Source of the DNA: Candidatus Shapirobacteria bacterium | Lineage (GTDB): Bacteria > Patescibacteriota > Microgenomatia > 0-14-0-10-38-17 | Length of the DNA: 64,000 nucleotides | NCBI GenBank assembly: GCA_018052565.1 | Contig: JAGPNC010000001.1 | Coordinates: 45,512 to 109,511 of the forward strand | Direction of reading: 5' to 3' | Shown here: positions 17,419-53,657 of the stretch, piece after piece | How positions within the stretch are numbered: position 1 is the stretch's first letter | Layout of the letters: every line of letters starts with the position of its first letter | Position numbers and translations under genes: made by a program | Notes under the pieces: generated by a model | The model's input: only the letters and a program-made list of their open reading frames with translations | Told to the model about the DNA's origin: nothing | Databases searched by the model: none

Positions 17419-18042
17419 TTAGTATTCTCTCCTTCCCTCCAGCGCTCGTTCTAAGGTCAGCTCATCAGCATACTCCAAATCCGCCCCTACCGGCAATCCC
17501 TGCCCTACTCGGCTCACCCTCACTTTATCAACCCTCTCAGCATTAACTTTCTCTAACTCTTTCTTAATATACATCGCGGTGGCTTCTCCTTCCAAAGAAG
17601 AGCCTGTCGCCAAAATAACCTCTCTTATCGTCTCATTTTCCCTTACTCTTCTAATTAGTTCGGCAATCTTAATCTCCTCGGCGCTAATATTTTGCAAGGG
17701 ATTAATTACCCCTCCCAAAACATGATAAACCCCTCGATAATGGTTCGTCCGCTCCAAAGAGAGAATATCCAATGGTTGTTCCACCGCGCAAATAATACTC
17801 TGGTCTCGGCTCAAATCAGCGCAAATTTCGCACGGATCCGTTTCTCCAATGTTATGGCAAACAGAGCACTCTTTGGTTTCCTTTTTCAAATTTACCACTG
17901 TTTCGCCAAATTGTTCCAAAAACTCCTGAGGAGTATGCAAAAGATAAAAGGTAAGTCGCGCCGCTGTTTTGGGACCAATGCCTGGTAATTGCTCAAAAGC
18001 CTCAATAAGATTATTAATCGCCTTAGGAATTTTCATTTTCAA
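17419..18042 (-). CDS. recR: Recombination protein RecR
   Basis: HhH (LPGIGPKTA). C4 zinc finger (CSVCHNIGETDPCEIC). Toprim domain. Part of the classic dnaX-ybaB-recR cluster. Confidence 0.9.
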   Translation of the reverse strand: MKMKIPKAINNLIEAFEQLPGIGPKTAARLTFYLLHTPQEFLEQFGETVVNLKKETKECSVCHNIGETDPCEICADLSRDQSIICAVEQPLDILSLERTNHYRGVYHVLGGVINPLQNISAEEIKIAELIRRVRENETIREVILATGSSLEGEATAMYIKKELEKVNAERVDKVRVSRVGQGLPVGADLEYADELTLERALEGRREY

Positions 18043-18043
18043 A

Positions 18044-18319
18044 CTAAAAATTCATCTTCCCCATCAATTTTTCGGCAACAAGGCGTTGAACTTCATCCAA
18101 GGCTTTATTAATAACTTGCGTTATCTCCTCCCCGCTTACTCCCTCTTTAAAACTTAATGACTTAAGCCGCGGTTGCCCAGAAACAACCACCTTAACGCCC
18201 CTTTCCTCTACTGTCAGCTCTTCTTTAGCCAATTGCTTTTGCAAGTCTCTCGCTTGCTTCTGCATTTTTGCTAAATCACCTAACTGTTTAAACTGATCAA
18301 ACATTTTCCTCACCTCCAA
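18044..18319 (-). CDS. ybaB: Nucleoid-associated protein YbaB/EbfC
   Basis: 91 aa, MQKQARDLQKQL... Conserved position between dnaX and recR. Confidence 0.85.
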   Translation of the reverse strand: MEVRKMFDQFKQLGDLAKMQKQARDLQKQLAKEELTVEERGVKVVVSGQPRLKSLSFKEGVSGEEITQVINKALDEVQRLVAEKLMGKMNF

Positions 18320-19805
18320 AAATTTTTTCTGCCAAGCCTAGTAGGTCTTCTTCTTTGTCTTCAACTTTTTCTTCGCTTCCTTTCACTTGCCTTCGCTTGA
18401 ATTTGGGTGAAAGTTTGAAAAAAACTTTTGCTTTTATCCCCAAAACTTCCTCCACTGCTTTTTCTACAATTCGCCGATTTAATTCCTTTTCCAAGCATTC
18501 TTTGTGAAAGGAATAGTAAACGCCAATCGTTAAAGACTGCTTGTCAAAAGAAAGCGGTTGTGCTGATTTTAAAAAAGCTTCTACCGAGTGGTTTTGTGGC
18601 CGTACTTTAGTTAAAATATCCTGCCAAATCTTATCATCGATGCTAATCCCCTTCTCCTCATCAGTGTTTTCTTCCTTTTTTTTGTCTTTATTTGCTCCTT
18701 TTTTTTCTTCCTTTTCTTTGAAATTTTTAAAAGAAGAGTCATCGCCTTCTTTTGCTCCCAAAAGCGACGCTGCCTTTCCTACTGCCACCTCAAGGGCCAA
18801 AATCGGGACGTTCGTTTGTTTTGCCTGCCTTAAGGCTTGAGAAAAAATATCAACCAACGAAAAAAGCTGATCAGAAGAAAAAGTGCTTTTTTTGCCATCA
18901 GGCAATCCCCAAAGTCCGTGGAGTAAAAGACGCAACTCCCTTAAAAGTTGTTCCAAATAAGCCTGAATATCTAAACCCCTTTGACTGATTTCTTCAACCA
19001 TTGATACTGCCTCCCCAAGTTTCCCTGCCGCTAAAAAATCAAGAAGCAATGTTGGCGCCAAAGAGTCTTCCATGCCAATTATCCTTTCCACCATCTGTCG
19101 GTCAATTTTTGGACCAAAAAAAGAAAGTTCCTCTAAGAGCTTTTGAGCATCCCGAAAGCTCCCGTCTGCCAACCGAACAATTTCTTCCAGAGCTTCTTCT
19201 TCAATTACCAATTTTTCCCCCTCTGCTGCTTTTTTTAAAGCGCCCATCACTTCTTCCGCCGTTGCCCTATTAAAATTAATCCGTACGCAACGGGAAAGAA
19301 TTGTTTCCGGTAGTTTCTCGGGGTTAGTAGTGCAAAGAATAAAAATCACTTTTTCCGGCGGTTCTTCCAGCGTTTTCAAAAGGGCATTAAAAGCCTCGGG
19401 AGTAAGCATGTGCACTTCATCAATAATATAAACTTTATACTTGCCTCGACTTGGAGCTAAATTAACCTTCTCCTTGAGATCACGAATATCGTCAATCCCC
19501 CGGTTAGAAGCGGCATCAATTTCTAAAACATCCAAAAAATCCCCCCTCGCAATCGCTTGGCAAACCTCACATTGACCACAAGGTTCTCCTTTTTTAGCAT
19601 TGGGGCAATTCAGGCTTTTGGCCACCAACCGTGCCATCGACGTTTTTCCCACCCCTCGTGGCCCCGCGAATAAAAAGGCATGAGGGAGATGATTAGACTG
19701 CAAAATCCTCCCTACCTTATCGCGTACCTCTACTAGGTCAAAATCGGCAATTTTTTGGGGACGATATTTCAGGTAAAAAGCCATAAAGAAAGTATTAAGT
19801 ATCAA
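18297..19805 (-). CDS. dnaX: DNA polymerase III subunit gamma/tau
   Basis: Walker A GPRGVGKTS. Zn module CPNAKKGEPCGQCEVC. DEVHML. SRC. Confidence 0.9.
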   Translation of the reverse strand: MILNTFFMAFYLKYRPQKIADFDLVEVRDKVGRILQSNHLPHAFLFAGPRGVGKTSMARLVAKSLNCPNAKKGEPCGQCEVCQAIARGDFLDVLEIDAASNRGIDDIRDLKEKVNLAPSRGKYKVYIIDEVHMLTPEAFNALLKTLEEPPEKVIFILCTTNPEKLPETILSRCVRINFNRATAEEVMGALKKAAEGEKLVIEEEALEEIVRLADGSFRDAQKLLEELSFFGPKIDRQMVERIIGMEDSLAPTLLLDFLAAGKLGEAVSMVEEISQRGLDIQAYLEQLLRELRLLLHGLWGLPDGKKSTFSSDQLFSLVDIFSQALRQAKQTNVPILALEVAVGKAASLLGAKEGDDSSFKNFKEKEEKKGANKDKKKEENTDEEKGISIDDKIWQDILTKVRPQNHSVEAFLKSAQPLSFDKQSLTIGVYYSFHKECLEKELNRRIVEKAVEEVLGIKAKVFFKLSPKFKRRQVKGSEEKVEDKEEDLLGLAEKIFGGEENV

Positions 19806-20067
19806 GTATTATTTATTAAGTATAATTCAAAAGCTAGAATAAAAAAAAGATAAAATTACCGAATTGCTCCTCCTAGGCGGGATATCTCGAAAGGAGATTG
19901 CGAGTGATGTGTCACCGTCATCCTGACGAAAGCCAAGATCTTTCCTAAAACCAAGGAGAAACAAATTCTGAAATTTTCATTAGAATAACAAACCCCAAAA
20001 AACAACACCTGCTGTTAACCCCTAGCAATTTGGCCTGCCTGCGGCAGATCTCCCGCAGGGAGATAAT

Positions 20068-20454
20068 TTAGTTATCCCCTTCCATAATTCTCCCCAATCC
20101 GTGCTCCACAAAATCCCAAATCGCCTCATCAATTGTTTCCTGAAAATATAGCGCTTCTTTTTGGGCTCGGGGATAGCAAACAACAATATCACCCAACAAG
20201 AGCAGCCCCCCTTCAATTGGTCTTTCGTTTTGGGGAAACGCTAAAACATCACTAGCCAAATCTTTGTCGCGAAAGTCCCGATTCAGCTGACGCATTTTCC
20301 GCTCGCCGACCACAGCAACACTCACTTCCACTTCCCCCACTCCCCTCTCTCGGAAGAATTTCTTTATTCTTTCTCTTAATAATTTTTTATCAAAAGAATA
20401 ATAAGAGCGGGAGGAGATGCCAATTTCGATCATAGGCGCCATTGTAAACACCAA
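20068..20454 (-). CDS. ybeY: YbeY-like endoribonuclease (rRNA maturation factor) with degenerate metal-binding motif
   Basis: SDVLAFPQ and LGDIVVCYP motifs align with the YbeY family. The expected H-x3-H-x5-H motif reads HGLGRIMEGDN, so only the first His is kept. Confidence 0.7.
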   Translation of the reverse strand: MVFTMAPMIEIGISSRSYYSFDKKLLRERIKKFFRERGVGEVEVSVAVVGERKMRQLNRDFRDKDLASDVLAFPQNERPIEGGLLLLGDIVVCYPRAQKEALYFQETIDEAIWDFVEHGLGRIMEGDN

Positions 20455-20489
20455 AAATAAACAAATCTATAATTTGGAATTAAAACAGA

Positions 20490-20680
20490 GGGCAGGACAA
20501 AAAAATCAAAAGTTAAAAGTCAAAAGCTAAAAGTTCCCGCCCGAGACGGATCCGCCGTTTTGGGCGAATAGATTTAAGCTTTGAGATTTGACATTCGAGA
20601 TTTCAGCTCGGCTCGGCATTTGCGTTTTGAGGCCCCTGTGTGACATTCAAGATTTGAGCTCTTTTAATCACCGCAAAGCT
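20490..20680. repeat. Composite A-tract/GC-hairpin intergenic repeat (ybeY-yqeY spacer)
   Basis: AAAAATCAAAAGTTAAAAGTCAAAAGCTAAAAGTT-CCCGCCCGAGACGGATCCGCCGTTTTGGGCG ... repeated GAGATTTGACATTCGAGATTTCAGCTCGG / GACATTCAAGATTTGAGCTC units. Confidence 0.5.
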
Positions 20681-21122
20681 CATCGTTCCCTTCAGCCATT
20701 ATCTCCTTTACTTTCCTCGCCGCAATTTCTCCACTTACTTTTCCCCGTAATTCTTTCATCACCGCTCCCATTATCTGGCCAAAATTTTGATCTTTTCCCT
20801 CTTCTAGCACCCCCTTAATTACCTTTTCTATTTCTTCTTCCGTTAATGGCGGCGGCAAGAGACTTTTAAGAAAACAAATTTCTCCTTCCGCTTTTTTAAC
20901 TAAATCCTCTCGCCCTCCCTTTTTGAAAAACTCGATTGCTTCCTCTCGCTGCTTAATTTCCTTCTGAATAAGAGAAAAAATTTCTTCCTCCTCAAGCTCT
21001 CTTTGTTTTTCAATTTCTTCCTTTTCTATTGCCGCCAAAAGAAGACGCAACACTGATACTTTTTCTGCCTCTTTCTTTTTTAATGCTTCTCTTAGAAATT
21101 GTTGGATTACTTCTTTTTTCAT
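20664..21122 (-). CDS. yqeY: GatB/YqeY domain protein
   Basis: 152 aa helical protein (LRLLLAAIEKEE...FGQIMGAVMKELRGK). Sits immediately downstream of rpsU as in Firmicutes. Confidence 0.7.
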   Translation of the reverse strand: MKKEVIQQFLREALKKKEAEKVSVLRLLLAAIEKEEIEKQRELEEEEIFSLIQKEIKQREEAIEFFKKGGREDLVKKAEGEICFLKSLLPPPLTEEEIEKVIKGVLEEGKDQNFGQIMGAVMKELRGKVSGEIAARKVKEIMAEGNDELCGD

Positions 21123-21322
21123 TTTCCTCTACCTCGCCGCATTTCTTGATTGTGCCGATGCCTTCTCGCCGAAGGCTTTTCATAGCGCTGCTTTTCTTTT
21201 AAGCTTATCACTAAGTTTTCGGCCATAATTTGCCGTCGAAAAGAGGAAATAAGTTGGTCATCGCTCTCGCCTGGTTGTTTCTTGACAATAATTGCCATGG
21301 GATCATAAAACACCTCCTTCAA
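21119..21322 (-). CDS. rpsU: 30S ribosomal protein S21
   Basis: 67 aa basic protein (SFRRQI...YEKPSARRHRHNQEMRRGRGK). Confidence 0.7.
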   Translation of the reverse strand: MKEVFYDPMAIIVKKQPGESDDQLISSFRRQIMAENLVISLKEKQRYEKPSARRHRHNQEMRRGRGK

Positions 21323-35756: not shown

Positions 35757-36794
35757 CTATAGTTCTATTTTTACCCGCTCTCTTAACTTAGGGTTATCTA
35801 GTAATTTCGCTCCCCCCAAAACTACCGCCGCTTGGGGATCGGGGGCAACAAAAACTGGCATTTTAATTTCTTGAGAAAAAAAGTTGGCTATACGAGAAAG
35901 CCCAGCCACTCCCCCGCACAAGGTAACTCCTCGCTCCAAAAAATCATCCATTAATTCCGGAGGCGATTCTTCAATCACTTCGCTTATTTGGCCGGCAATC
36001 TGATTAAGTACCGGCGCAATCGCCTCTCGCACCTCTTCCGAGCTAACCTTAACCGAAAGAGGCAAGCCAGTTTCTAAGCTTCGCCCGCGCACTACCATCA
36101 GCCTCTCTTTCTCTAAGGGTAAGGCGCTCCCTATGTTAATTTTAATCTCCTCCGCTGTTGTCTCGCCAATTAAAAGAGAGTATTTTAGTCTCAAGAAATT
36201 GACTAACGCCTTATCCATTCTATAGCCCGCTGTCCTTAAAGAGCGGTTTAAAACAATCCCCCCTAAAGAAATAACCGCAATTTCCGTTGTTCCTCCGCCA
36301 ATATCACAAATCAAAACCCCCCCGGGTTGCTCTACCGGCAAATCCGCCCCTATTGCTGCCGCCAATGGTTCTTCTATCAAAAAGCAGTTTCCTGCTCCTG
36401 CCTCAAGAGTGGCCTCCAAAACCGCCCGCCTTTCTACTTCGGTGGAGCCTGAGGGAGTTCCCACTACCACCAAAGGCTTAAAAAAAGCGTGCCAAATTTT
36501 TCCCTCCGGAGTTAATTGTTCTAAATAGTAGCTAATCATTGCCCGAGCGGCGTCAAAATCAGCGATCACCCCTTCATGTAAAGGATAAAATGCTTCGATT
36601 GTTTGGGGAGTCTTACCAATCATTTTTTTTGCCTCTTCCCCAACAGCCACAATCGCACCATCCCTTTTCTGTCTCGCTACTACCGAAGGCTGGCGAAAAA
36701 CAATCCCCTTCCCTTTTTGATAAACTAAAGTATTCGCCGTCCCTAAATCAATCGCTAATTTTTGTGAAAAACGGTCTTTTAAAAAGCTGAGCAT
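35757..36794 (-). CDS. mreB: Rod shape-determining actin homologue MreB
   Basis: LAIDLGTANTLVY phosphate-1 motif. DIGGGTTE phosphate-2 motif. Confidence 0.9.
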   Translation of the reverse strand: MLSFLKDRFSQKLAIDLGTANTLVYQKGKGIVFRQPSVVARQKRDGAIVAVGEEAKKMIGKTPQTIEAFYPLHEGVIADFDAARAMISYYLEQLTPEGKIWHAFFKPLVVVGTPSGSTEVERRAVLEATLEAGAGNCFLIEEPLAAAIGADLPVEQPGGVLICDIGGGTTEIAVISLGGIVLNRSLRTAGYRMDKALVNFLRLKYSLLIGETTAEEIKINIGSALPLEKERLMVVRGRSLETGLPLSVKVSSEEVREAIAPVLNQIAGQISEVIEESPPELMDDFLERGVTLCGGVAGLSRIANFFSQEIKMPVFVAPDPQAAVVLGGAKLLDNPKLRERVKIEL

Positions 36795-36915
36795 TATATA
36801 AAGTATAGCATCGGAAAGAAGAAGTAAGAAATGGTATAATTAACTATAAACAATCGCCAAGTGCTTTTTCGACAAAAATTATGATTTTTCTAATACTTAA
36901 TTTTGTCTACTAGCA

Positions 36916-37008
36916 GAAAATTCAAAAGTTAAAATTCAAAATTAAAACAGAAACTTTTAACTTTTTACTTGGAATTTTACATTTTCATTTTTGAATTTTG
37001 AATTTTTC
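36916..37008. repeat. Oligo-A/T-tract palindrome upstream of tRNA-Ala
   Basis: AAAATTCAAAAGTTAAAATTCAAAATTAAAAC ... TTTTACATTTTCATTTTTGAATTTTGAATTTTTC. Confidence 0.65.
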
Positions 37009-37052
37009 ATCATACTTAATACCTAATACTTAATACTTGATACTTTTTTTCT

Positions 37053-37129
37053 GGGCCCGTAGCTCAGTTGGCTAGAGCGTCCGCATGGCATGCGGAAGGT
37101 CAGGGGTTCAACTCCCCTCGGGTCCACCA
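37053..37129 (+). tRNA. tRNA-Ala (GGC)
   Basis: Cloverleaf: acceptor GGGCCCG/CGGGTCC with the G3:U70 Ala identity pair. Anticodon loop ATGGCAT. T-arm GGGGTTCAACTCCCC. Encoded CCA. Confidence 0.9.
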
Positions 37130-37317
37130 CATAAAGAAACAAAAGGTATTGCCAAATAGCCTTCCAAACTAGCTGATATCCTCTATAAAAAATGATAAAG
37201 CTAAGGATAGGCAGTAATTACCGACCTCCAATTAACATAATAACTTCGGGGGGCAAACAGGATCTTCCTTCCGTGCTGTTGTTGACGATTTTTATTAAAA
37301 AATTGTAGAATAAGTTT

Positions 37318-38376
37318 ATGAACGATTATAGCGACTACAAAGAAAGAAAATATTTATCTTCTACAGAAGCAGCAAGATATTTAGATATCTCTGTAGGAAT
37401 GTTACATAATTTGGTCAGGGTAAATAAGATTAAATGTTTTATCGCCGGAAGTGGGCAAAAACGCTTTAATCTAAAGAATTTAAAAAAATATGAAACGAGT
37501 AAACCAAATAAAAAAGTAAAAGAGAAAAAAAAAGAAATATTAATAGAAAATATAGTCAACATTAATAATACTACTCAGAAAATCTTTATTAAAAATGCGA
37601 TGGATATGAGTGAACTAAAAGATGACTCTGTCCATTTAATGATTACTTCGCCTCCTTATTTTGACGCAAAAATGTACACCAAAAAACCTATTAAAAATGA
37701 TTTAGGCAATATACATAATCTTGATGAATGGTTTAAAAAAATTGGCATTGTTTGGAAAGAAGTTTTTAGAGTTTTACAACCGGGGAGAAAAGCATTTATA
37801 AATATTATGAATTTGCCTATAAGAGATAATGGCGGTTTTAAATCTCTAAATTTAGTCGGTAGGACAATAGATACAATGGAAAAAATAGGTTTTATTTTCA
37901 AACGAGATATTGTGTGGCACAAAACAAACGGGGTGAGAGCAAATTTCGGGACCTATCCATACCCTGGCGGTATTCTAATAAATAATATGCATGAGTTTGT
38001 TCTGGAATTTAATAAACCAAACAAGAAAGGATTTAATAAATATGGACATTTGACAAAAGAGCAAAAAGAAGCATCCAGGCTCGATAAAGAATTTTGGCTT
38101 TCTATAAAAAACACTGATGTCTGGTTAATGAAGCCGCGAAACAGTGGAGATAGCCGAACCCATGTTGCTCCGTTTCCTTACGAGTTACCATATAGAATCA
38201 TCAAGGCGTTTACTTTTATCGGAGAAGTGGTCTTAGATCCGTTTCTTGGCAGTGGCACCTCGCTAGAAGTAGCCGCAGATTTAAAAAGAAATGGCATAGG
38301 ATATGAAATTGTCCCTGAAATTGCTGAAACTGCAATTAAAAATTTGAATCAACATCAGAATAAACTATTTACTTAA
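37318..38376 (+). CDS. DNA methyltransferase (beta-class N4-C/N6-A, SPPY motif) with N-terminal excisionase-type HTH
   Basis: Motif IV TSPPYFDAK is followed much later by motif I DPFLGSGTSLEVA, the beta-class order. N-terminal residues 14-60 resemble an HTH_17/MerR-like DNA-binding domain. About 30% GC, so AT-rich. Confidence 0.8.
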   Translation: MNDYSDYKERKYLSSTEAARYLDISVGMLHNLVRVNKIKCFIAGSGQKRFNLKNLKKYETSKPNKKVKEKKKEILIENIVNINNTTQKIFIKNAMDMSELKDDSVHLMITSPPYFDAKMYTKKPIKNDLGNIHNLDEWFKKIGIVWKEVFRVLQPGRKAFINIMNLPIRDNGGFKSLNLVGRTIDTMEKIGFIFKRDIVWHKTNGVRANFGTYPYPGGILINNMHEFVLEFNKPNKKGFNKYGHLTKEQKEASRLDKEFWLSIKNTDVWLMKPRNSGDSRTHVAPFPYELPYRIIKAFTFIGEVVLDPFLGSGTSLEVAADLKRNGIGYEIVPEIAETAIKNLNQHQNKLFT

Positions 38377-38390
38377 TTAATAATAAAAAT

Positions 38391-39515
38391 ATGGTAATCG
38401 ATGCAAAAACAATATATGCCCAATCGAGTGATATTAAATCTAGAACATATCTAGAGTATCGCAAAGATATGAAACAAAAAGCTATTGCTGAGTTAGAAGT
38501 TTTACCGTGGCTTAAGAAAAAAATTCGCCAAAAGGATAAAAAAGCCGTTGTTGAAAAATTCGGAGGCGATAAGTTTATTTGGTTTTTAAGAAAAGGGGGA
38601 ATTACGAGAGAACCAGATTTTGTGGCAAAATATTCAAATAAGGAAACTAAATACGTTGAATTTCAATACGCAAAAAAAGAATTAAGCGCTTATGATTTTA
38701 AGATTTCTAAAATTGCTCCAAAAAACAGAACACTAAACAAGAGGGCCCCTAAAGACGATACAGAAATTTTATATGTCGTTAAGCCAACCTATGAGTTCGC
38801 AATTTTAAGTCCTGACTGGATAATTAAGAATTCAAAACAAGCTATTGCTTCTGCTTGGGGTAATGCTCCGGTATTCAGGGTACCAAAAGAAAAATTTAAA
38901 AAAGTTTTACAGAAAGATAAAGAATTGAAAGCTGTTTGTGACTTTATAGATAAAAAAATTTCGATCTTGGATTTCCAACATAAAACCATTGAAATGGAAG
39001 AGAACAAGCTTTCTTATCTTTTGCAACAAGTTATAGATGAAGAGAAAATCCTAAAAATAATTCCAAAAACCATAGATGGATTTTTTAAAGTTTGCTTTAT
39101 GCTCGACCACATCGAAAAGATTCCAACTAATGCAAATTTGTGGCTAGTATATATTTTATCCTTTTTAGACCAAAGTTTAAATTCTTATGAACTCTTTCGG
39201 TTAATTTATAGCTTAGATTTTCTTTATCAAAAAGTTGAATTAAAAACAAATGAACTTAGCAGATTAGTAAGGGGATTAAAAGAAATTAATAAGCAAGTTG
39301 AACGATTTTCAAATCCCGATGGTTCTTTTCGGTCAGATAAAACCATCGCTCCTCTGGAAGATACAAGATATTCACTTTTCATAATAAATATCCTTGAAGA
39401 TTTGACCCAAGATGTTCTGTATTACTATGGGAACAATATCAACCTAAGACCTATCACTAGGATATACCAAACCGTTCCGCAAATAAATAAAACTTTTCAA
39501 TTCGTCATGCAATAA
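38391..39515 (+). CDS. Uncharacterised protein, candidate restriction endonuclease partner of the upstream methyltransferase
   Basis: Starts 14 bp after the MTase stop on the same strand, with the same AT-rich composition. Possible PD-x9-ETK (PD-(D/E)xK-like) segment REPDFVAKYSNKETKYVEF. No other recognisable domain. Confidence 0.35.
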   Translation: MVIDAKTIYAQSSDIKSRTYLEYRKDMKQKAIAELEVLPWLKKKIRQKDKKAVVEKFGGDKFIWFLRKGGITREPDFVAKYSNKETKYVEFQYAKKELSAYDFKISKIAPKNRTLNKRAPKDDTEILYVVKPTYEFAILSPDWIIKNSKQAIASAWGNAPVFRVPKEKFKKVLQKDKELKAVCDFIDKKISILDFQHKTIEMEENKLSYLLQQVIDEEKILKIIPKTIDGFFKVCFMLDHIEKIPTNANLWLVYILSFLDQSLNSYELFRLIYSLDFLYQKVELKTNELSRLVRGLKEINKQVERFSNPDGSFRSDKTIAPLEDTRYSLFIINILEDLTQDVLYYYGNNINLRPITRIYQTVPQINKTFQFVMQ

Positions 39516-39659
39516 ATTCGCCAAGAGGGGAAAGATATCGAGAAAATTATAAAAGAGAATAGTCATAAAATAAAATAGACCCAAGCTTAGCGTTTTAACA
39601 TCGATTCGACAAGTTCTGTAATTTTTTATCCTTAATACAATGCAAACATCACTAAGCTC

Positions 39660-45930: not shown

Positions 45931-46104
45931 ATGGCAAAAAAGGGCGCGCGGCAGTTTATTGGTTTGGTCTGTTCTGTTTGTGGTCACCAAAACTACACAA
46001 GCCAGAAAAACAAAACCAATAGCCCGGAAAAAGTCACCATCAAAAAATACTGCTCTTCCTGCCACAAGACTACTGACCACAAGGAGACGAGCAAATTGAA
46101 GTAA
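45931..46104 (+). CDS. rpmG: 50S ribosomal protein L33 (not in the ORF track because it is under 60 aa)
   Basis: Translation MAKKGARQFIGLVCSVCGHQNYTSQKNKTNSPEKVTIKKYCSSCHKTTDHKETSKLK. Cys4 zinc ribbon. Canonical position between tRNA-Thr and tRNA-Trp. Confidence 0.85.
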   Translation: MAKKGARQFIGLVCSVCGHQNYTSQKNKTNSPEKVTIKKYCSSCHKTTDHKETSKLK

Positions 46105-46111
46105 AAATTAA

Positions 46112-46187
46112 AGGGACGTAGCTCAACTGGTAGAGCCGCGGTCTCCAAAACCGCAGGTTAGAGGTTCAAGCCCTCTCGTCCCTGCCA
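46112..46187 (+). tRNA. tRNA-Trp (CCA)
   Basis: Acceptor AGGGACG/CGTCCCT. Anticodon loop CTCCAAA. T-arm GAGGTTCAAGCCCTC. CCA encoded. Canonical location after rpmG. Confidence 0.9.
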
Positions 46188-46191
46188 AAAA

Positions 46192-46827
46192 CTAGCGACT
46201 CTCCTGGTACAAAATCCAATCAGTACTATTGACCACCCCATCTCTATTAATATCAAATTCCTCATTGCTCGTGCCAAAAACCCTTTTAAAATCATCTAGG
46301 GTATATTCTCCTGGAGAAATGGTAGGCGATGAACTCGGAGACAAACTCTTTGTGGGCTCCACTGTCACCGATGAGGGGACACTGGTGGGCAAAACAGGAG
46401 AAACTGCCGGTGAAATCTCCAAGGGCACTTTTGCCGCAGATTCCTTGGTAGTAAAAGAATAAGGGGCACCATTATCATCATAAACTTCTTCTCCTGCTCG
46501 AAGACGAAAATAATAAATTGTTTCTGGTAGGAGTGGCGAAAGAACAACGCTATGGTTAGTAGTTTCAGCCGTTTCTGTTGCCCGCAATAAAAAACTTCCT
46601 GGCGTCGTTCCATATTCTATTTGCCCAATCGTTGGCTCCGCTGTTTGCCAAGAAACCGTCGCGCTATTAGCGGTAATATTGGCCACTCGCACGCCCTGAG
46701 GTTTCACTTCTCCCGTTGCTCCTCCCAAAAAAGTTCTTATCGTACCCATCTGCCAGATTACTATTCCCACTGCCACCAGCCCCAAAATCCCTCCGCCCGC
46801 CATCAAAACTATTTTTTTATTCTTCAT
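46192..46827 (-). CDS. Membrane-anchored fibronectin-III domain protein with C-terminal dockerin-like repeat
   Basis: N-terminal TM anchor. FN3-like segment VRVANITANSATVSWQTAEPTIGQIEYGTT...IYYFRLRA. Ser/Pro linker. C-terminal DINRDGVVNSTDWILY matches the dockerin Ca-binding repeat D-x-N-x-DG-x-VN-x-xD. Confidence 0.55.
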   Translation of the reverse strand: MKNKKIVLMAGGGILGLVAVGIVIWQMGTIRTFLGGATGEVKPQGVRVANITANSATVSWQTAEPTIGQIEYGTTPGSFLLRATETAETTNHSVVLSPLLPETIYYFRLRAGEEVYDDNGAPYSFTTKESAAKVPLEISPAVSPVLPTSVPSSVTVEPTKSLSPSSSPTISPGEYTLDDFKRVFGTSNEEFDINRDGVVNSTDWILYQESR

Positions 46828-46841
46828 CTCTCAACTCAATT

Positions 46842-47519
46842 TTAGGCGAGACTATTTTCTCTTTTTTTGAAAAACCAAGCTAAACCTCCTGCCGCAAGGA
46901 AAAAGCCTATCCCTAAAAGTTCCCCTGTTAATTCAAACACACCCGTCTTGGGCAAGGCGGTTGAGGTTGCTTCACTGGTTGGCGTTACCCCTCCTTCCAC
47001 CCCCGTCGTTGCCGCCGTAATCGTGTAAGAACCAGTTCCATTAGCACTGCACAAAATCACGTCAATCTGCCCCTCGTTTATGTTAGAATCTGCTGTTGAA
47101 CCGCTTTGGCAACTAAAGGTGAGCCTGGCTGTTCCTGCTTTTTTTGCTCTAAAATTAATTGTTGCAAGCGTCCCTGTTCCTGTTTTAGGGGCATTACTAT
47201 CAGCAATACCATAAATTTTTATTTCTCCCAGAACACTGGTATCGCTGGTTGTAGTTGGGAAAAAAAGTCCCTCTCCAACGCTGATTACTTCTAAAAGGCC
47301 ACTATCAAACGCTATTACCGCATCGGCGCTATTAATATTTTTGCCACCGGTGTTAATTTCTACCACTACAGCTAATGTCTCCCCTACTTTTATGGTGGTA
47401 GCGGCGGGAGAAAAAGAAAAATGAGGTGACGAAGTTTGTGCCCATACTGCGCCTTCCCCCAACAAGACGCCCGCATACGCTACTGTGATAAAGGAAAAGA
47501 AAAGTTTCCGAATACTCAT
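46842..47519 (-). CDS. Secreted cohesin-like domain protein with LPXTG sortase sorting signal
   Basis: Signal peptide. Cohesin-like strand pattern VGETLAVVVEINTGGKNINSADAVIAFDSGLLEVISVGEG. C-terminal LPKTG, hydrophobic helix and KKRE tail, the classic sortase substrate. Confidence 0.55.
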   Translation of the reverse strand: MSIRKLFFSFITVAYAGVLLGEGAVWAQTSSPHFSFSPAATTIKVGETLAVVVEINTGGKNINSADAVIAFDSGLLEVISVGEGLFFPTTTSDTSVLGEIKIYGIADSNAPKTGTGTLATINFRAKKAGTARLTFSCQSGSTADSNINEGQIDVILCSANGTGSYTITAATTGVEGGVTPTSEATSTALPKTGVFELTGELLGIGFFLAAGGLAWFFKKRENSLA

Positions 47520-47656
47520 TTCCTAACCATCTTATAATAACAAAACTCCCGATGTCAAGGAGAAAATTTTTCCTAAAATTAGGAATAATAGGTATGGCTT
47601 ATTACCTTCTACCAAAAAAACACAAGGGGAAAAAGCAAAATCAAACAAAAAAAATG

Positions 47657-48403
47657 TTACACCGCTACGTTTATGCCCGGTCCTATGGTGGCACAAATTG
47701 TCACTTTTTTGATATTTTCCTTCCCCACTCCCTCAATCACCGCTTGCAAATTCTTTTGCAATTCTGCCTCTGGCTGACTAACTTGACCAAAAACCAGATG
47801 AACTAGAGGGGCTTTCTTTTCTGTCCGCACTACCACTACCCCCTTTCCCATCTCTTCTGCTACCTTCTGGGGGTTTTGCACTAAAGTGCCATTTTTCGGG
47901 TTAGGCATTAAACCCGCGGGCCCTAGAATTTTCGCATAAGGCAAAAGAGCAGGCATTACTTGAGGACTAGCGAGAAGGATATCAAAATCAATTTGCCCTT
48001 TTTTAATCTTTCCGACTACGGCAGGATCATCGGCAATAGCAATTTTCTTCTGCTTACCCGTTGGATAGGGAAAGTTTACCCTCGCCGTCAAACCTACCCT
48101 CTTTACCACTAAATGAGCTTCTGCTTTTCCTTCAAAATGACTAATTGAAGTCTTCTTTAATAAAGCCACCGCCTCTTTGGGGGAATACTTTTTTCCTCTC
48201 TCTAAAAAAGCTGCTACCTGCCGGTACTTTTTTCCCCTTTCTTTTCTTTTCAGTGCTTTTTTGCCTTGATCCTTCTCGCCCTTTTCCTGTTTATTAGCCA
48301 CCTTTCTCCTTTTTAATGTTTTTCCCTCTCTTTCTTCAACTTTCCTCTCCGCCTCTTCCTTTTTTTGATTTTTGCCAACTAAGGTAATTCTTTTTTTACC
48401 CAT
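47657..48403 (-). CDS. rplA: 50S ribosomal protein L1
   Basis: L1 fold motifs (PLVHLVFGQVS...TIGPGINV) with a Lys-rich N-terminal extension. Confidence 0.9.
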   Translation of the reverse strand: MGKKRITLVGKNQKKEEAERKVEEREGKTLKRRKVANKQEKGEKDQGKKALKRKERGKKYRQVAAFLERGKKYSPKEAVALLKKTSISHFEGKAEAHLVVKRVGLTARVNFPYPTGKQKKIAIADDPAVVGKIKKGQIDFDILLASPQVMPALLPYAKILGPAGLMPNPKNGTLVQNPQKVAEEMGKGVVVVRTEKKAPLVHLVFGQVSQPEAELQKNLQAVIEGVGKENIKKVTICATIGPGINVAV

Positions 48404-48420
48404 AATAAAATTAAATTTTT

Positions 48421-48846
48421 TTAGCCGGTTACCTCTATTCCCATGCTTCGCGCCGTTCCCGCCACAATCTTCTTTGCTTTTTCTAGGTCAGTCGTATTAA
48501 AATCCTCTCTCTTTGCCCGAGCAATTTTCTCTATTTGTGTCGTTGTCAATTTGCCAATAATATTTTTCCCCGCCTCCATTGAACCTTTCTTTATCCCTAT
48601 CTCTTTTTTAATTAAATCCGTCACCGGCGGCAATTTAGTCACAAAATCAAAACTATGATCCTCATAAACAGTGATTACGGCCGGGATAATCATTCCTTTT
48701 CTCTCCGCTGTTTGCGCATTGTATTCTTTCACAAAATCCATAATGGGGACGCCATGTTGCCCTAAAATCGGTCCCACCGGTGGCGCTGGGGTTGCCTCTC
48801 CTGCCGGTAAATTAATTTTAATCTTGGCAATAATTTTTTTAGCCAT
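48421..48846 (-). CDS. rplK: 50S ribosomal protein L11
   Basis: [33 protein letters not shown]. Confidence 0.9.
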
Positions 48847-48855
48847 TAGAGTTAT

Positions 48856-49455
48856 TTAAACTTTTCTTGCTTGCAAAAAGTCCAATTCTACCGGTGTTTC
48901 CCGGCCAAAAATAGAAACCATCACCTTGAGTTTTCCCTTTTCTTCATCAACTTCGTCAACAGTGCCTAAGAAATCCGCGAAAGGGCCTTCTGTAATTTTT
49001 ACCGCTTCTCCCGGCGAAAATTTTACCTTAAACTTTGGCTTCTCTGTCGCCAAATACTTCTCAATTACCCTCACTTCTTCTTCAGAAACCGGTGTGGGCT
49101 GATTACCGCCAATCCCCACAAAACCAGCCACTCCCCAAGTTTCCCGCGCTACCGCCCACGAAGCATCATCTAAAATCATCTTCACAAAAACATAGCCCGG
49201 AAAAAGAACTTCTTTTTTTGAAAACCGTTTTCCTCCTCTAATTTTTAGCCTTTCCTCTTTTGGAACTAAAATCTCCCAAAACTTATCCTCTTGCTTAAAC
49301 GATTTAATCCTTTGCAAAAGCATTTTAACCACCTTGTCTTCCTGGCCAGAATAAGTATGAACAATATACCACTGGGCTTGGGGGTTTTGGTCTTCCCTTA
49401 GAATCCAATAATTTTCATCTCCGTTCTTTTTCTTTGTTTTTTTAATTTTAGTCAT
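48856..49455 (-). CDS. nusG: Transcription termination/antitermination factor NusG
   Basis: NGN domain WYIVHTYSGQEDKV. KOW motif GEAVKITEGPFADFLGTVDEVD. Confidence 0.9.
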   Translation of the reverse strand: MTKIKKTKKKNGDENYWILREDQNPQAQWYIVHTYSGQEDKVVKMLLQRIKSFKQEDKFWEILVPKEERLKIRGGKRFSKKEVLFPGYVFVKMILDDASWAVARETWGVAGFVGIGGNQPTPVSEEEVRVIEKYLATEKPKFKVKFSPGEAVKITEGPFADFLGTVDEVDEEKGKLKVMVSIFGRETPVELDFLQARKV

Positions 49456-49480: not shown

Positions 49481-49660
49481 TCATAAAATTAAATTAATAA
49501 ACTGATTAAATAAGAAATCAATACCCGCAAAAAATAATCCTAAACCAAGGCAGACGCTTATTACTAAAAGAGTCAAATAAATCACTTCCTCTCGCGCTGG
49601 CCAAGTCACTCTCTTTAACTCCCCCCCTGCCTCTTTAATAAACTTATCTATCTTGCTCAT
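49481..49660 (-). CDS. secE: Preprotein translocase subunit SecE (not in the ORF track because it is under 60 aa)
   Basis: Reverse-strand translation MSKIDKFIKEAGGELKRVTWPAREEVIYLTLLVISVCLGLGLFFAGIDFLFNQFINLIL. Conserved VTWP motif plus a single TM. Immediately upstream of nusG. Confidence 0.8.
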   Translation of the reverse strand: MSKIDKFIKEAGGELKRVTWPAREEVIYLTLLVISVCLGLGLFFAGIDFLFNQFINLIL

Positions 49661-49697: not shown

Positions 49698-50090
49698 TTA
49701 CTTTAATTCTACTTTCGCTCCCGCCGCCTCCAGTTTCTTTTTTGCTTCCTCCGCCTCTTCTTTCTTTACCTCTTTCAAAATTTCTGCGGGTGCGCCTTCA
49801 ACTAAATCTTTAGCTTCCTTAAGCCCCAACGCCTGGTTGACTTCTCTTACCGACTTAATAACGGCAATTTTATTTGCTCCCGCATCGGTTAAAACCAAAT
49901 TATATGAAGACTTTTCTTCCTGAGGCTCTTCTGTGGAGACGCTTGCTGCAGGAGTAGCCATCACCGTAGGTGAAACGCCAAATTTTTCCTCTAAGGCCTT
50001 CACCAGTTCCGCCAATTCTAATACTGAAAGCTTAGAAATTGACTCAATAATTGCTTCTACTGATTGAGAATTTTTCTTTTCTTCCATCAA
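49698..50090 (-). CDS. rplL: 50S ribosomal protein L7/L12
   Basis: N-terminal dimerisation helix, flexible hinge, C-terminal domain ...[12 protein letters not shown]...[20 protein letters not shown]. Confidence 0.9.
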
Positions 50091-50647
50091 TTTTCACCTC
50101 CCTTAATTTCTTCCTTTCGATTAATTTCTTTGAGAACAAGAATAAAATCGCCAAGCAACTTCGATAAAACTAATTGCATTTTTACCAACGGGCCTTCTAT
50201 CCCTAAAATTGTTTTACCGATCAACTCTTCAAAAGTGGGGAGATTAGCTAATCTCCCCACCTCTTCTCCTTTTAAAACTAATGGCTCCTCTTTGCTTAAA
50301 AGCGCCCCTCCCTTAAAATTTGCCCCTACTCCTTCTCCTCTTAAAGCCTCAGAAACTTTCTTCAGTGCCTCAATTTCTTTTTCATGACCAAAAATACATG
50401 CCGTTGGACCCGTCAGGGATCTCTCCTCGCCCAACTTAATTCCCCGCTCTGCTAAAGCTCTGTTTAAAAGGCTATTTTTGACTACCAAAAAATCTCCTCC
50501 TGAATTTTTTGCTTCCCGGCGTAACCTGTTCATTAAACCAGCCTTAACCCCATTAAAATCAACTAAGAAAAAACTCTTCGCCTCCTCTATTTTTCTTCCC
50601 AAATCTTCCACCTGGCGAACTTTATTTTGATTAACCATTTTCTCCAT
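50087..50647 (-). CDS. rplJ: 50S ribosomal protein L10
   Basis: [35 protein letters not shown]. Precedes rplL. Confidence 0.9.
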
Positions 50648-50871: not shown

Positions 50872-51114
50872 ATGACAAATAATAACCATCTTTCCCCCCT
50901 AGGCAAACCAAGGCTCTCCCTTGAAAATTTACCTGACCTTCTGACGGTACGGGAAGTAGCAGAAATTTTGCGCGTTTCCCCCCTAACTATCAAGCGCTGG
51001 GGCAAAAGAGGCAAATTACCCGCTATCAGGATTAACGCCCGGGGCGACCGGCGCTATCGTAAAGAACAAGTGCTCTGGCTCTTGGGTATGGAAGAAAAAA
51101 ACAAAAATCTCTAA
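50872..51114 (+). CDS. Excisionase/MerR-like helix-turn-helix DNA-binding protein (HTH_17-like)
   Basis: LLTVREVAEILRVSPLTIKRWGKRGKLPAIRI...RRYRKEQV. 80 aa. Confidence 0.6.
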   Translation: MTNNNHLSPLGKPRLSLENLPDLLTVREVAEILRVSPLTIKRWGKRGKLPAIRINARGDRRYRKEQVLWLLGMEEKNKNL

Positions 51115-51115
51115 T

Positions 51116-52147
51116 TTATTTTAGAGAATGCTGATATAAATCAATATTCTCAAGGGCCACTCCTATCCCCTTAATAACACAAAAAAGGGGATCAGGGGCA
51201 ACAAAGCAAGGTACTCCTGTCTCTTGGGTAATGAAACGATCAAGGTTAGCAAGAAGACTGGTACCCCCGCTGATAACCATTCCCCGATCAATAATATCCC
51301 GAGAAATTTCCGGTGGCGTTTCCTCAAACACCTCCTTAATCCCCTTAACGACCTGATGCAACACAGGCATTATCGCCTCCTTAACTTCACTGCTAGTAAG
51401 ATTAATCAATCGGGGCAAGGCCGTTAAGGAATCTCTCCCCTTAATCTCCATTGTTTTCTCCCCTTTTCCTTCTATCGCGCTACCGATCGTAATTTTAATT
51501 TCCTCTGCCGTTTGCTCGCCCACAATCAGGCCGTAATTTTTCCGCAAGTAAGAAGCAATTGCCTCGTCCAATTTACTCCCCCCCACCCGCAATGACTGAT
51601 GAGCCACAACACCTCCCAAGGCGATAACGGCGATTTCTGCTGCTCCGCCGCCAATATCAACAATCATATTTCCCGAGGCTTCGGCAATAGGCATTTGGCT
51701 GCCGATTGCTGCCGCCAATGGCTCATCAATAAGGTAAACTTTGCGAGCGCCAGCAGAAAGTGCCGCTCCAATCACCGCTCTCCTTTCTACCTGAGTGGCT
51801 CCTGCAGGGATACACACCATTATCTCCGGCTTAAAAAAGTGAGTTCCCAAAGATTTCTTGATAAAATAACGAATAAGTGCTTCGGTAACTCTATAGTTAG
51901 CCACCACCCCTTCTTTCAAGGGTCTTAAAATAGTGATATTTTGAGGGGTTTTGCCTAACATTTTTTTTGCCTCGTGACCAATAGCAATCACCCGATTATC
52001 CTTATAGGTGATGGCTACTACCGTCGGCTCATTTAAAATGATTCCCTTTCCTTTGAGATAAACCAAAGAATTAGCTGTTCCTAAGTCAATCCCCAAAGCG
52101 GGAAAAGAAAATTTTCTGGTAAAAAATTCCGCTACCCCCTTTTTCAT
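51116..52147 (-). CDS. Second MreB/Mbl actin-like paralogue
   Basis: ALGIDLGTANSLVYLKGKGIILNEPTVVAI. DIGGGAAEIAV. Confidence 0.85.
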   Translation of the reverse strand: MKKGVAEFFTRKFSFPALGIDLGTANSLVYLKGKGIILNEPTVVAITYKDNRVIAIGHEAKKMLGKTPQNITILRPLKEGVVANYRVTEALIRYFIKKSLGTHFFKPEIMVCIPAGATQVERRAVIGAALSAGARKVYLIDEPLAAAIGSQMPIAEASGNMIVDIGGGAAEIAVIALGGVVAHQSLRVGGSKLDEAIASYLRKNYGLIVGEQTAEEIKITIGSAIEGKGEKTMEIKGRDSLTALPRLINLTSSEVKEAIMPVLHQVVKGIKEVFEETPPEISRDIIDRGMVISGGTSLLANLDRFITQETGVPCFVAPDPLFCVIKGIGVALENIDLYQHSLK

Positions 52148-52391: not shown

Positions 52392-53657
52392 ATGACCCGT
52401 TCTCAAAAAAGAGTCGCCATTAGTCTTTTAACTTTTTTCTTTGTTGTCAGCGGCACAATTTTAATCAGTCTTTTGGCCCGTGGCTATCGTCCTGACTTCC
52501 AAGAAAAAGGGCTTAAGCCTACCGGCTTGCTCGTCGTTAATTCTCTCCCCAAAGGAGCCCAAGTTTTTATTAACGGCCAATTAACCACCGCCACTAATCA
52601 AACTATTAACTTACCGCCCGGAGAATATAGGGTAACTATCAAAAAACCAGGCTATTCTTCTTGGGAAAAAAACATTATTTTGGAAAAGGAAGTGGTCACC
52701 AATATCGACGCTTATCTTTTCCCCCTTGCGCCCGACCTTAAAGCTCTCACCTTTTCTCCCACCTTAAATCCTCTTCTTTCACCAGACGGAACGAAGCTAA
52801 TTTACTTTTCTCCCGGAGGGGAAGAAGATCCCCAAAACCAAAACGCTACTCAAACGGCCCCTCTTCTCCCTCAAGAAAAAGGGGGTGTTTGGCTTATTGA
52901 CTTGACAGAAAAACCTCTTGGCCGCTCTCTCCAGCCGCGGGTTCTAGTCAAAACGCCTAAAGACTTACCCATTGAGCAAATTGAGACTGAATGGTCACCA
53001 GACTCAAGGCAAATTCTTCTTACTATCAACTCAAAAGACGAAAAGAGTAAGCAATATTTTCTTCTCGAAATTAATCAAGTTTACGACTTCACCCTCTCTC
53101 CTCTTATCAGCACTCCAACTGCCCAAGTGATAACTACTCTTGATTTGTGGGAAAAACAAAAAAATCAACAAAATAAAGCTCTTCTAAAAAGATTGCCCGA
53201 AGAAATACAAAAATTTCTTGAAGAAAAAGTTGCCAGCTTTTCCTTCTCTCCCGACGAGAGCAAAGTGCTTTATCAAGCAGGAAGTGATTTCCAAATTAAA
53301 GAAAAACTCTTATCCCAAGAAATTATTGGCGCTTCAACCCAAAAAGAAGAAAGGGCAGTCAAAAAAAATCAATGGTATGTTTATGATCTCAAAGAAGATA
53401 AAAACTTTCTTGTCCTTGATAATAAAGAAGCTACCAAAATTAGCTGGTTTCCCACTTCTCTCCATCTTCTTTTAATAAAAGAGGGCAAAGTAGAAATCGA
53501 AGATTACGATGGCAAGATGCGGACTACCGTTTATGCCGGCCCTTTTGATAATGGATTTGTTTTCCCCCTCCCTTCCGCTAAAGGGTTGCTGATCCTTACT
53601 TCCTTAAATAACAATACCGATTCTGCCCCCAACCTTTATTCTATTAATTTTTATTAA
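52392..53657 (+). CDS. PEGA domain membrane-anchored protein with beta-propeller-like C-terminal repeats
   Basis: N-terminal TM. PEGA motif LPKGAQVFINGQ...LPPGEYRVTIKKPGY. Repeated SPDG/SPDS segments. Confidence 0.55.
   Translation: MTRSQKRVAISLLTFFFVVSGTILISLLARGYRPDFQEKGLKPTGLLVVNSLPKGAQVFINGQLTTATNQTINLPPGEYRVTIKKPGYSSWEKNIILEKEVVTNIDAYLFPLAPDLKALTFSPTLNPLLSPDGTKLIYFSPGGEEDPQNQNATQTAPLLPQEKGGVWLIDLTEKPLGRSLQPRVLVKTPKDLPIEQIETEWSPDSRQILLTINSKDEKSKQYFLLEINQVYDFTLSPLISTPTAQVITTLDLWEKQKNQQNKALLKRLPEEIQKFLEEKVASFSFSPDESKVLYQAGSDFQIKEKLLSQEIIGASTQKEERAVKKNQWYVYDLKEDKNFLVLDNKEATKISWFPTSLHLLLIKEGKVEIEDYDGKMRTTVYAGPFDNGFVFPLPSAKGLLILTSLNNNTDSAPNLYSINFY

Follow-up and report, generated by a model that had tools for sequence, protein, structure and literature searches.

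Dockerins of type I consist of two tandem repeats of ~22 residues, each made up of a calcium loop and a helix. Peer et al. (2009, FEMS Microbiol Lett 291:1) reportedly described cohesin and dockerin modules in organisms that do not degrade cellulose, as general protein-protein connectors. Such non-cellulosomal examples include the Archaeoglobus fulgidus cohesin 2xdh and the cohesin-like modules 2jh2, 2vo8 and 2w1n of Clostridium perfringens, of which 2w1n joins a cohesin to a fibronectin type III (FN3) domain. Attachment to other cells is the presumed lifestyle of bacteria of the candidate phyla radiation (CPR), and their surface proteins are little known apart from type IV pili. In Ruminococcus flavefaciens, the single-cohesin LPXTG protein ScaE receives the dockerins of ScaB and CttA (PMC2930009; PMC12484212). 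Here we analyze a 64-kb stretch of DNA (the window) from a Candidatus Shapirobacteria bacterium (CPR, Microgenomates group), in which two adjacent open reading frames (ORFs) on the minus strand encode a cohesin-fold protein with a sortase-type sorting signal (ORF-A) and an FN3 protein with a dockerin-like tail (ORF-B). We favor the view, with a probability of roughly 0.55, that the two proteins form a minimal, non-cellulosomal cohesin-dockerin surface module of this CPR bacterium.

The layout of the pair resembles that of ScaE and its partners, as ORF-A runs from a signal peptide through one cohesin and a linker to an LPXTG motif at the C-terminus, and its putative partner would dock through a C-terminal dockerin-like module. 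ScaE carries a type III cohesin, whereas the model of ORF-A lies nearer to type I. The partners of ScaE have an X-module and two-repeat dockerins and recruit the cellulosome or a cellulose-binding protein, whereas ORF-B is a lone FN3 domain with an apparent one-loop dockerin remnant and has no X-module, carbohydrate-active enzyme (CAZyme) or carbohydrate-binding module (CBM). The genes of ORF-A and ORF-B are, unlike those of the ScaE system, adjacent and coupled. The best matches of both the cohesin and the tail were to clostridial type I cohesin-dockerin structures (6kgf, CohA2-Doc0917 of Clostridium acetobutylicum; 2vn5 of C. cellulolyticum; 1ohz, with the Xyn10B dockerin of C. thermocellum), and the loop of ORF-B follows the clostridial type I pattern D-x-N-x-D-G-x-x-N-S-T-D. 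Canonical dockerins fold their two repeats together, which permits dual binding modes, whereas ORF-B has one loop preceded by a helix; unlike in clostridial cellulosomes, no multi-cohesin scaffoldin, enzyme or CBM is present at the window locus. The known non-cellulosomal examples are isolated modules in larger enzymes or toxins, whereas the Shapirobacteria pair is a dedicated, lineage-wide and apparently translationally coupled two-gene module, with a sortase-type anchor and a reduced (elsewhere cysteine-rich) dockerin. ORF-A shares its signal peptide, LPXTG motif, hydrophobic segment and basic tail with generic LPXTG proteins of Gram-positive bacteria and CPR, but the passenger domain that it carries is a cohesin, for which a dedicated partner is encoded alongside. 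A literature search for cohesin-dockerin systems in CPR, Patescibacteria or Microgenomates found none, returning only rumen and biogas CAZyme surveys and work on giant proteins of Omnitrophota.

Results

ORF-A carries a cohesin and a sorting signal

Both reading frames of the first-pass annotation were confirmed on the minus strand (Table 1), and its description of ORF-A as a protein with a signal peptide, a cohesin and an LPKTG signal held up in every part. Pfam Cohesin (PF00963) matched residues 40-155 of ORF-A with 43.2 bits (cut-off 24.1; E 5.6e-11), and all but one of 27 ORF-A homologues carry the same domain. AlphaFold, run with 23 homologues, gave a model whose core is all-beta and reaches a predicted local distance difference test score (pLDDT) of ~83-95 over residues 31-170. 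When this model was compared to the PDB with Foldseek, the best 50 matches, which are those listed, were cohesin entries throughout, headed by 6kgf_C (E 1.2e-9, root-mean-square deviation 2.5 A, TM-score 0.76; all TM-scores are target-normalized). Among these listed matches, type I cohesins gave the best fit (TM-score 0.76-0.78), the type III cohesin of ScaE (2zf9) ranked lower (0.59-0.61), and the non-cellulosomal A. fulgidus cohesin 2xdh stood eighth. A single-sequence phmmer search of ORF-A against the PDB was weak, with cohesin 2xdh as the top match (E 0.2), and the fold assignment was therefore based on Pfam and Foldseek. The identical NCBI protein is titled 'LPXTG cell wall anchor domain-containing protein [Candidatus Shapirobacteria bacterium]', which bears out the CPR origin guessed at in the first-pass annotation.

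The related loci used for comparison came from a one-genome-per-species scan with the ORF-B family, which gave 92 matches, of which 80 loci were retained. Together with ten further loci, they make up a set of 90 (~1.3 Mb; individual loci are given L numbers) that was searched by local hidden Markov model (HMM). Nearly all loci with the ORF-B family belong to Shapirobacteria or to unclassified Patescibacteria metagenome-assembled genomes (MAGs). Spacing and motifs were counted in 84 distinct cohesin/FN3 pairs and the wider gene neighborhood in ~82 loci, and conservation was read from alignments of 23 homologues for ORF-A and 26 for ORF-B.

Conservation extends to both ends of ORF-A. At the N-terminus lies a Sec signal peptide of standard type that ends in VWA↓Q, in which Ala27 is invariant; within the mature protein, C137 and C157 are likewise invariant. 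The C-terminus runs from LPKTG through 24 hydrophobic residues to KKRENSLA and scored 16.2 with TIGR01167, barely above the cut-off of 15.9, and 15.4 bits with Gram_pos_anchor (PF00746), under the cut-off of 20. Within the sorting motif P190 never varies, while conservation of L189, T192 and G193 is 90% or higher. A motif of the form [LIV]Px[TSA][GA] followed by 24-25 hydrophobic residues was kept in 84 of the 84 distinct cohesin orthologues, most commonly as LPQTG, LPETG, LPKTG or LPRTG. These data support the view that ORF-A is secreted, has the cohesin fold and carries a sorting signal of the sortase type.

A profile of the cohesin family retrieved 160 clusters (50% identity) at E <=1e-30 and 2,881 at E <=1e-10 from 1.84 billion representative proteins. 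Among the 150 matches listed, most were proteins of 210-260 amino acids (aa) matched over the full length including the anchor, and a few were multi-cohesin proteins. The best match (P0134, L091:4650-11480; E 1.3e-98) is a protein of 2,276 aa that combines nine cohesin domains with Big_7 and FN3 domains and ends in a dockerin. It is encoded on an unassigned 14.8-kb metagenome contig next to a GH44 glycoside hydrolase gene and further cohesin proteins, and that locus looks like a cellulosome-like system.

ORF-B joins an FN3 domain to a reduced dockerin-like tail

Within residues 42-127 of ORF-B, Pfam matched Pur_ac_phosph_N (PF16656; 42.2 bits, cut-off 30) and fn3 (PF00041; 30.4 bits, cut-off 25). 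The AlphaFold model shows an FN3 sandwich (pLDDT ~95) whose Foldseek matches were generic FN3 domains, followed by a disordered S/P/T linker (pLDDT ~50), so that ~45 flexible residues separate the FN3 domain from the tail. The hydrophobic N-terminal helix, FN3 domain and Ser/Pro linker predicted on first reading are thus all present, and the identical NCBI protein is titled 'fibronectin type III domain-containing protein'.

The tail contains a loop, DINRDGVVNSTD, that fits the dockerin consensus D-x-N-x-D-G-x-[IV]-N-x-x-D and is followed by a predicted helix (residues 201-210). D192, G197, N200 and D203 are invariant among the aligned homologues, and AlphaFold placed the loop between helices 177-183 and 201-210 (pLDDT 82-94). 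A profile of the tail (39-40 residues, 17 orthologues) run against the PDB returned type I dockerins exclusively in its top ten matches (E 4.7e-7 to 2e-3), with generic EF-hand proteins coming later (E >0.02). Distant ORF-B orthologues (33-41% identity) bear two calcium loops, and a profile of these two-loop orthologues aligned both loops to both repeats of solved dockerins (E 1e-5). Most of these two-loop orthologues have a recorded PF00404 match (P0118-P0132, L007). Because both the family profile and the two-loop orthologues match solved dockerins, the ORF-B tail is, as judged by profile comparison, a dockerin-derived calcium-binding module, reduced and not a full dockerin.

Tails of several forms occur among the 84 orthologues. 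Two loops with four invariant cysteines are found in 47, and about 11 have one loop with two cysteines; tails of the window clade have a single loop, lack cysteines and show, in place of the other loop, a helix-like YTLDDFxxxFG (YTLDDFKRVFG in the window protein). The remaining orthologues have variant tails or incomplete sequences. As to which ancestral loop the window protein has kept, the signs differ: hhalign paired its tail with loop 1 of the two-loop orthologues, whereas the C-terminal 'C-L-Q' ending of intermediate clade tails resembles loop 2. In the two-loop tails (L006:10001-10699, L007:10001-10672 and 45 more), a cysteine lies ~4 residues before each loop and one in each exit helix. 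Disulfide-forming enzymes are enriched in CPR (Meheust et al. 2019, PMC6744442), which fits the conserved cysteines of the cohesin and of the two-loop dockerins.

The two genes are paired across the lineage

ORF-A and ORF-B lie 14 nucleotides (nt) apart. A cohesin gene stands immediately upstream of the FN3 gene, in the same direction, in 88 of the 90 related loci, and the other two, without an upstream cohesin, are cut by contig ends. In 49/84 distinct pairs the cohesin stop and the FN3 start share 4 nt, and the gap is at most 30 nt in 82/84; the same 4-nt overlap is found in independent gene calls of L006 and L007. The pair is kept together across changing neighborhoods, and given that it recurs with its LPxTG-like motif and its calcium loop intact, these features are far beyond chance. 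The gene pair noted in the first-pass annotation therefore stands, and comparison of the loci supports a conserved, tightly coupled two-gene module of the kind expected for interacting partners. Such conserved pairing suggests that ORF-A and ORF-B may form a physical cohesin-dockerin contact.

In 65-69 of the 82 loci the pair ends a larger co-directional cluster. Two genes upstream of the pair, these clusters encode a protein of ~385 aa with an N-terminal hydrophobic helix, a cohesin (24.8 bits) and a canonical two-repeat dockerin (Dockerin_1, 35.3 bits). One gene upstream they encode a protein of ~200 aa with an N-terminal hydrophobic helix, which is cohesin-like by profile-profile comparison (probability 95.6%, E 1e-8). 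Cohesin-dockerin assembly is thus the theme of the locus. The window clade and its sister clade retain just the LPXTG-cohesin and the FN3-dockerin, and the 64 kb of the window yielded no further ORF with a cohesin or a dockerin loop. This reduction of the cluster to exactly these two genes is the strongest indirect argument for ORF-A and ORF-B as mutual partners.

The ~385-aa protein has the order cohesin-X-dockerin, and the four-gene cluster was seen in L006, L007, L021, L070 and ~65 more loci. A Glu-Ser is conserved inside the hydrophobic helix of the ~200-aa membrane-anchored cohesin-like protein. A cellulosome was considered and rejected: the window pair comprises one cohesin and one FN3 cargo, and no CAZyme or CBM domain was found in the pair or in the relatives' cluster proteins scanned. 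Having no catalytic or carbohydrate-binding domain, the pair is not to be filed as a cellulosome.

Objections to docking at the cell surface, and alternatives

Several observations weigh against a docked surface module. The match of ORF-B to Pfam Dockerin_1 (PF00404) reached 15.9 bits, below the cut-off of 22.9, and covers profile positions 32-48 of 57, taken here as half of the model; the tail has one calcium loop in place of the two tandem repeats that define the family. The inter-loop linker of two-loop orthologues is low-complexity and T/S/P-rich and varies from ~12 to ~40 residues, for which reason the two loops may be separate disulfide-stapled mini-modules and not one compact dockerin fold. 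The hydrophobic segment of ORF-B is 19-23 uncharged residues long among 71 orthologues, which is transmembrane length. Most of the 84 cohesin orthologues have 0 or 1 basic residue past the hydrophobic tail. Finally, neither the 64-kb window nor the ~1.3 Mb of the 90 related loci yielded a sortase gene. The dockerin repeat of the first-pass annotation accordingly survives as a dockerin-derived calcium loop, with the profile match at E 4.7e-7, but not as a complete dockerin; among the Pfam families it named, Cohesin and fn3 scored above their cut-offs and Dockerin_1 below.

The low score and single loop of the tail would also suit two co-expressed surface proteins that do not interact, in which the ORF-B loop stabilizes the tail or binds something else, for example a host ligand or a cohesin encoded elsewhere, and ORF-A binds another dockerin protein or a ligand that is not a dockerin. 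The tail profile's weak retrieval of generic EF-hand proteins points the same way, as do the three cohesin-like modules and two dockerins at most relatives' loci, which make the pairing ambiguous there. We nevertheless regard this as unlikely, because it is precisely these two genes that the two-gene clades have kept, side by side in all loci examined, and the window offers ORF-B no other cohesin and ORF-A no other dockerin loop.

The length of its hydrophobic segment implies that ORF-B may remain anchored in the membrane instead of being released. An uncleaved helix (N-in, C-out) would then sit in the membrane while the dockerin-like tip binds the peptidoglycan-linked cohesin, making the pair a non-covalent membrane-to-wall tether with a role in envelope architecture rather than in display of a free ligand. 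The segment is unlike a typical Sec signal core, AlphaFold models residues 2-35 of ORF-B as one continuous helix, and the upstream paralogue in other clades likewise has an N-terminal helix as its anchor. The sister clade (L001, L009, L013-L017) also has the pair divergent from mreB-mreC-mreD-PBP2, with Wzy_C and peptidase S11 genes near it. This envelope-gene neighborhood is confined to one clade, however, and most loci lie beside S21-YqeY-YbeY-dnaX. Moreover, the hydrophobic segment is followed by a [SG][GQ]A↓[STA] motif (GGA↓T in the window protein), in which Ala37 is invariant and position -3 is small (G, S or A) in 26/26 aligned homologues, as the signal-peptidase -3/-1 rule would have it. 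A tether depends on the same putative cohesin-dockerin contact as does display, and we give it a minor share of the probability. ORF-B could thus be released, as in classical display, or kept in the membrane, both being compatible with its predicted features.

The sorting signal of ORF-A and its Ig-like beta-sandwich of pilin size might alternatively mark a pilin-like subunit, polymerized by a pilus-specific sortase into a sortase-assembled pilus or fiber. Pilus operons normally carry a class C sortase. No sortase gene adjoins the pair in the 90 loci, ORF-A has no pilin motif or E-box and its fold matches cohesins and not pilins, and we consider a pilus highly improbable.

The sortase search itself covered all ORFs of the window and of the 90 loci and combined motif scans (TLxTC and relaxed forms) with phmmer, using a Staphylococcus aureus SrtA query, and as the window holds 64 kb of a genome of ~0.6-1 Mb, its negative outcome is uninformative for the genome. 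A sortase family is reported from over half of the CPR genomes and described as 'near ubiquitous in Microgenomates' (Meheust et al. 2019, PMC6744442), and on the strength of that survey a sortase is expected in this genome. A sortase substrate is by the same token expected in this bacterium, and to call a sortase-anchored cohesin notable in CPR, as was first done, was an overstatement.

Genomic neighborhood and a promoter-like element

The pair lies directly downstream of rplA on the same strand (Table 1), as first described. This position could mean that it is embedded in a ribosomal operon and co-transcribed with rplK-rplA in the slot of rplJ-rplL, so that its expression is tied to ribosome synthesis. 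The 137-nt spacer between rplA and the cohesin gene has no convincing intrinsic terminator, only a tract rich in T and a weak hairpin of 5 bp, so some read-through from rplA may occur. The hairpin was rejected as a terminator: it overlaps the -35 box, appeared by eye not to be conserved in L011 and was treated as a chance occurrence. The complete arrangement, rplJ-rplL-secE-nusG-rplK-rplA with the pair, is common only to the window, L011 (~72-80% identity) and L012, that is, to 3 of ~82 loci. In the sister clade the ribosomal block lies ~8 kb from the pair on the other strand, and in most lineages the pair stands upstream of S21-YqeY-YbeY-dnaX, with S21, YqeY, YbeY, dnaX, ybaB and recR downstream of the clustered pair. 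The window has these housekeeping genes at 17419-21322, without adjacent cohesin or dockerin genes. Because rplJ-rplL precede secE whether or not the pair follows rplA, including in relatives with the pair elsewhere, the pair did not displace them, and the idea that it occupies their slot is dropped.

A promoter-like element with 10/12 consensus matches precedes the cohesin gene of the window. In L001, L003/L017, L009 and L011-L016 a corresponding TTGAC[AG]-N16-19-TAT[AC/T]A[TG] ends 8-12 nt from the start codon of the cohesin gene. It is kept with either rplA or a divergent mreB upstream, in spacers that are otherwise unalignable. Conservation of this element whatever the upstream gene suggests that the pair has its own putative promoter with a very short leader. 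Co-transcription with the ribosomal genes, and with it a functional link to them, thus looks very unlikely to us, resting as it does on an adjacency seen in three genomes. In the light of synteny, the placement next to rplA is to be read as a local, lineage-specific rearrangement, for which co-transcription would be neither needed nor ancestral.

Table 1 Features of the window around the cohesin/FN3 gene pair.
Feature	Position	Strand	Remarks
ORF-A	46842-47519	minus	225 aa; signal peptide aa 1-27, cohesin ~aa 30-170, Thr-rich linker, sorting signal aa 189-225
LPKTG sortase recognition motif of ORF-A	46941-46955	minus	aa 189-193; read from sequence
ORF-B	46192-46827	minus	211 aa; hydrophobic helix aa 6-25, FN3 aa 43-127, S/P/T linker aa 128-172, dockerin-like aa 173-211
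Dockerin-like C-terminal module of ORF-B	46195-46311	minus	aa 173-211, 39 residues
Single calcium-binding loop D192-D203, DINRDGVVNSTD	46219-46254	minus	aa 192-203
Promoter-like element	47529-47558	minus	TTGACA-N16-TATAAG (or N18-TAAGAT), ends ~10 nt before cohesin ATG
rplA	47657-48403	minus	137 nt upstream of ORF-A
rplK	48421-48846	minus	
nusG	48856-49455	minus	
secE	49481-49660	minus	
rplL	49698-50090	minus	
rplJ	50087-50647	minus	
rpmG	45931-46104	plus	converges on ORF-B end
tRNA-Trp	46112-46187	plus	converges on ORF-B end

Other features of the region were recorded alongside. The stop of ORF-B (46192) is separated from the end of tRNA-Trp (46187) by 4 nt; rpmG and tRNA-Trp, the usual leaders of the ribosomal cluster, are detached and convergent in the window. 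The ribosomal order of the group, with rplJ-rplL before secE-nusG-rplK-rplA, is non-canonical (window, L001, L009, L011, L012, L014 and L015). Two mreB paralogues are present in the window (35757-36794 and 51116-52147): one heads mreC-mreD-PBP2-dprA-topA, and the other stands alone beside a small MerR/HTH gene (50872-51114) and a PEGA-domain protein (52392-53657). A stretch of low GC content at 36800-39600 (0.33-0.37 vs ~0.42 elsewhere) adjoins tRNA-Ala (37053-37129) and contains a gene with HTH_17 and N6/N4 DNA methylase domains (37318-38376) and an unannotated ORF of 374 aa (38391-39515). No homologues of the methylase gene or of the 374-aa ORF were found in the compared region of the closest relative, L011, and the stretch is probably an inserted restriction-modification system. 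Public MAG records with a Shapirobacteria-type locus (L015, L017-L023 and many more) are often titled 'uncultured Gammaproteobacteria bacterium', and L045 bears the title 'Candidatus Methanoperedens sp.'; judging by gene content and synteny, these labels are probably placeholders or wrong.

Discussion

Within the favored reading, the pair would be transcribed from its own promoter and be translationally coupled, or nearly so. ORF-A would be exported via Sec with its signal peptide cut after Ala27, and a housekeeping sortase would cut LPKT↓G and join the cohesin to peptidoglycan, as for ScaE of R. flavefaciens. ORF-B would be exported too, its calcium-binding helix-loop-helix corresponding to a dockerin minus the first calcium loop. 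Docking of this tail, presumably calcium-dependent, on the cohesin of ORF-A would hold the FN3 domain at the cell surface on the flexible Ser/Pro linker. The FN3 domain so displayed might, as the likeliest guess, serve to adhere to a polymer or to a host cell.

A more far-reaching possibility, which we consider doubtful, is that the locus encodes a lineage-wide cohesin-dockerin surface machine of the ultra-small Shapirobacteria, unrelated to polysaccharide breakdown. In most species it would consist of two cohesins, one anchored in the membrane and one in the wall, an adaptor with a cohesin and a dockerin, and an FN3-dockerin, and the window would retain a two-protein core that employs a one-loop 'half dockerin' in a new minimal binding mode. 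That core might serve the attachment of an episymbiont to its host or act as a strap between membrane and wall.

The pair introduces no new principle, as all of its parts come from known families and both proteins are already domain-named in NCBI. Read as a series, leaving the direction of change aside, the tail forms make a natural experiment on the smallest working dockerin, and the ~39-residue one-loop tag could serve as one half of an affinity pair. As a compact, experimentally tractable module present in ~90 Shapirobacteria species, the pair would offer a handle on CPR envelope architecture or host attachment.

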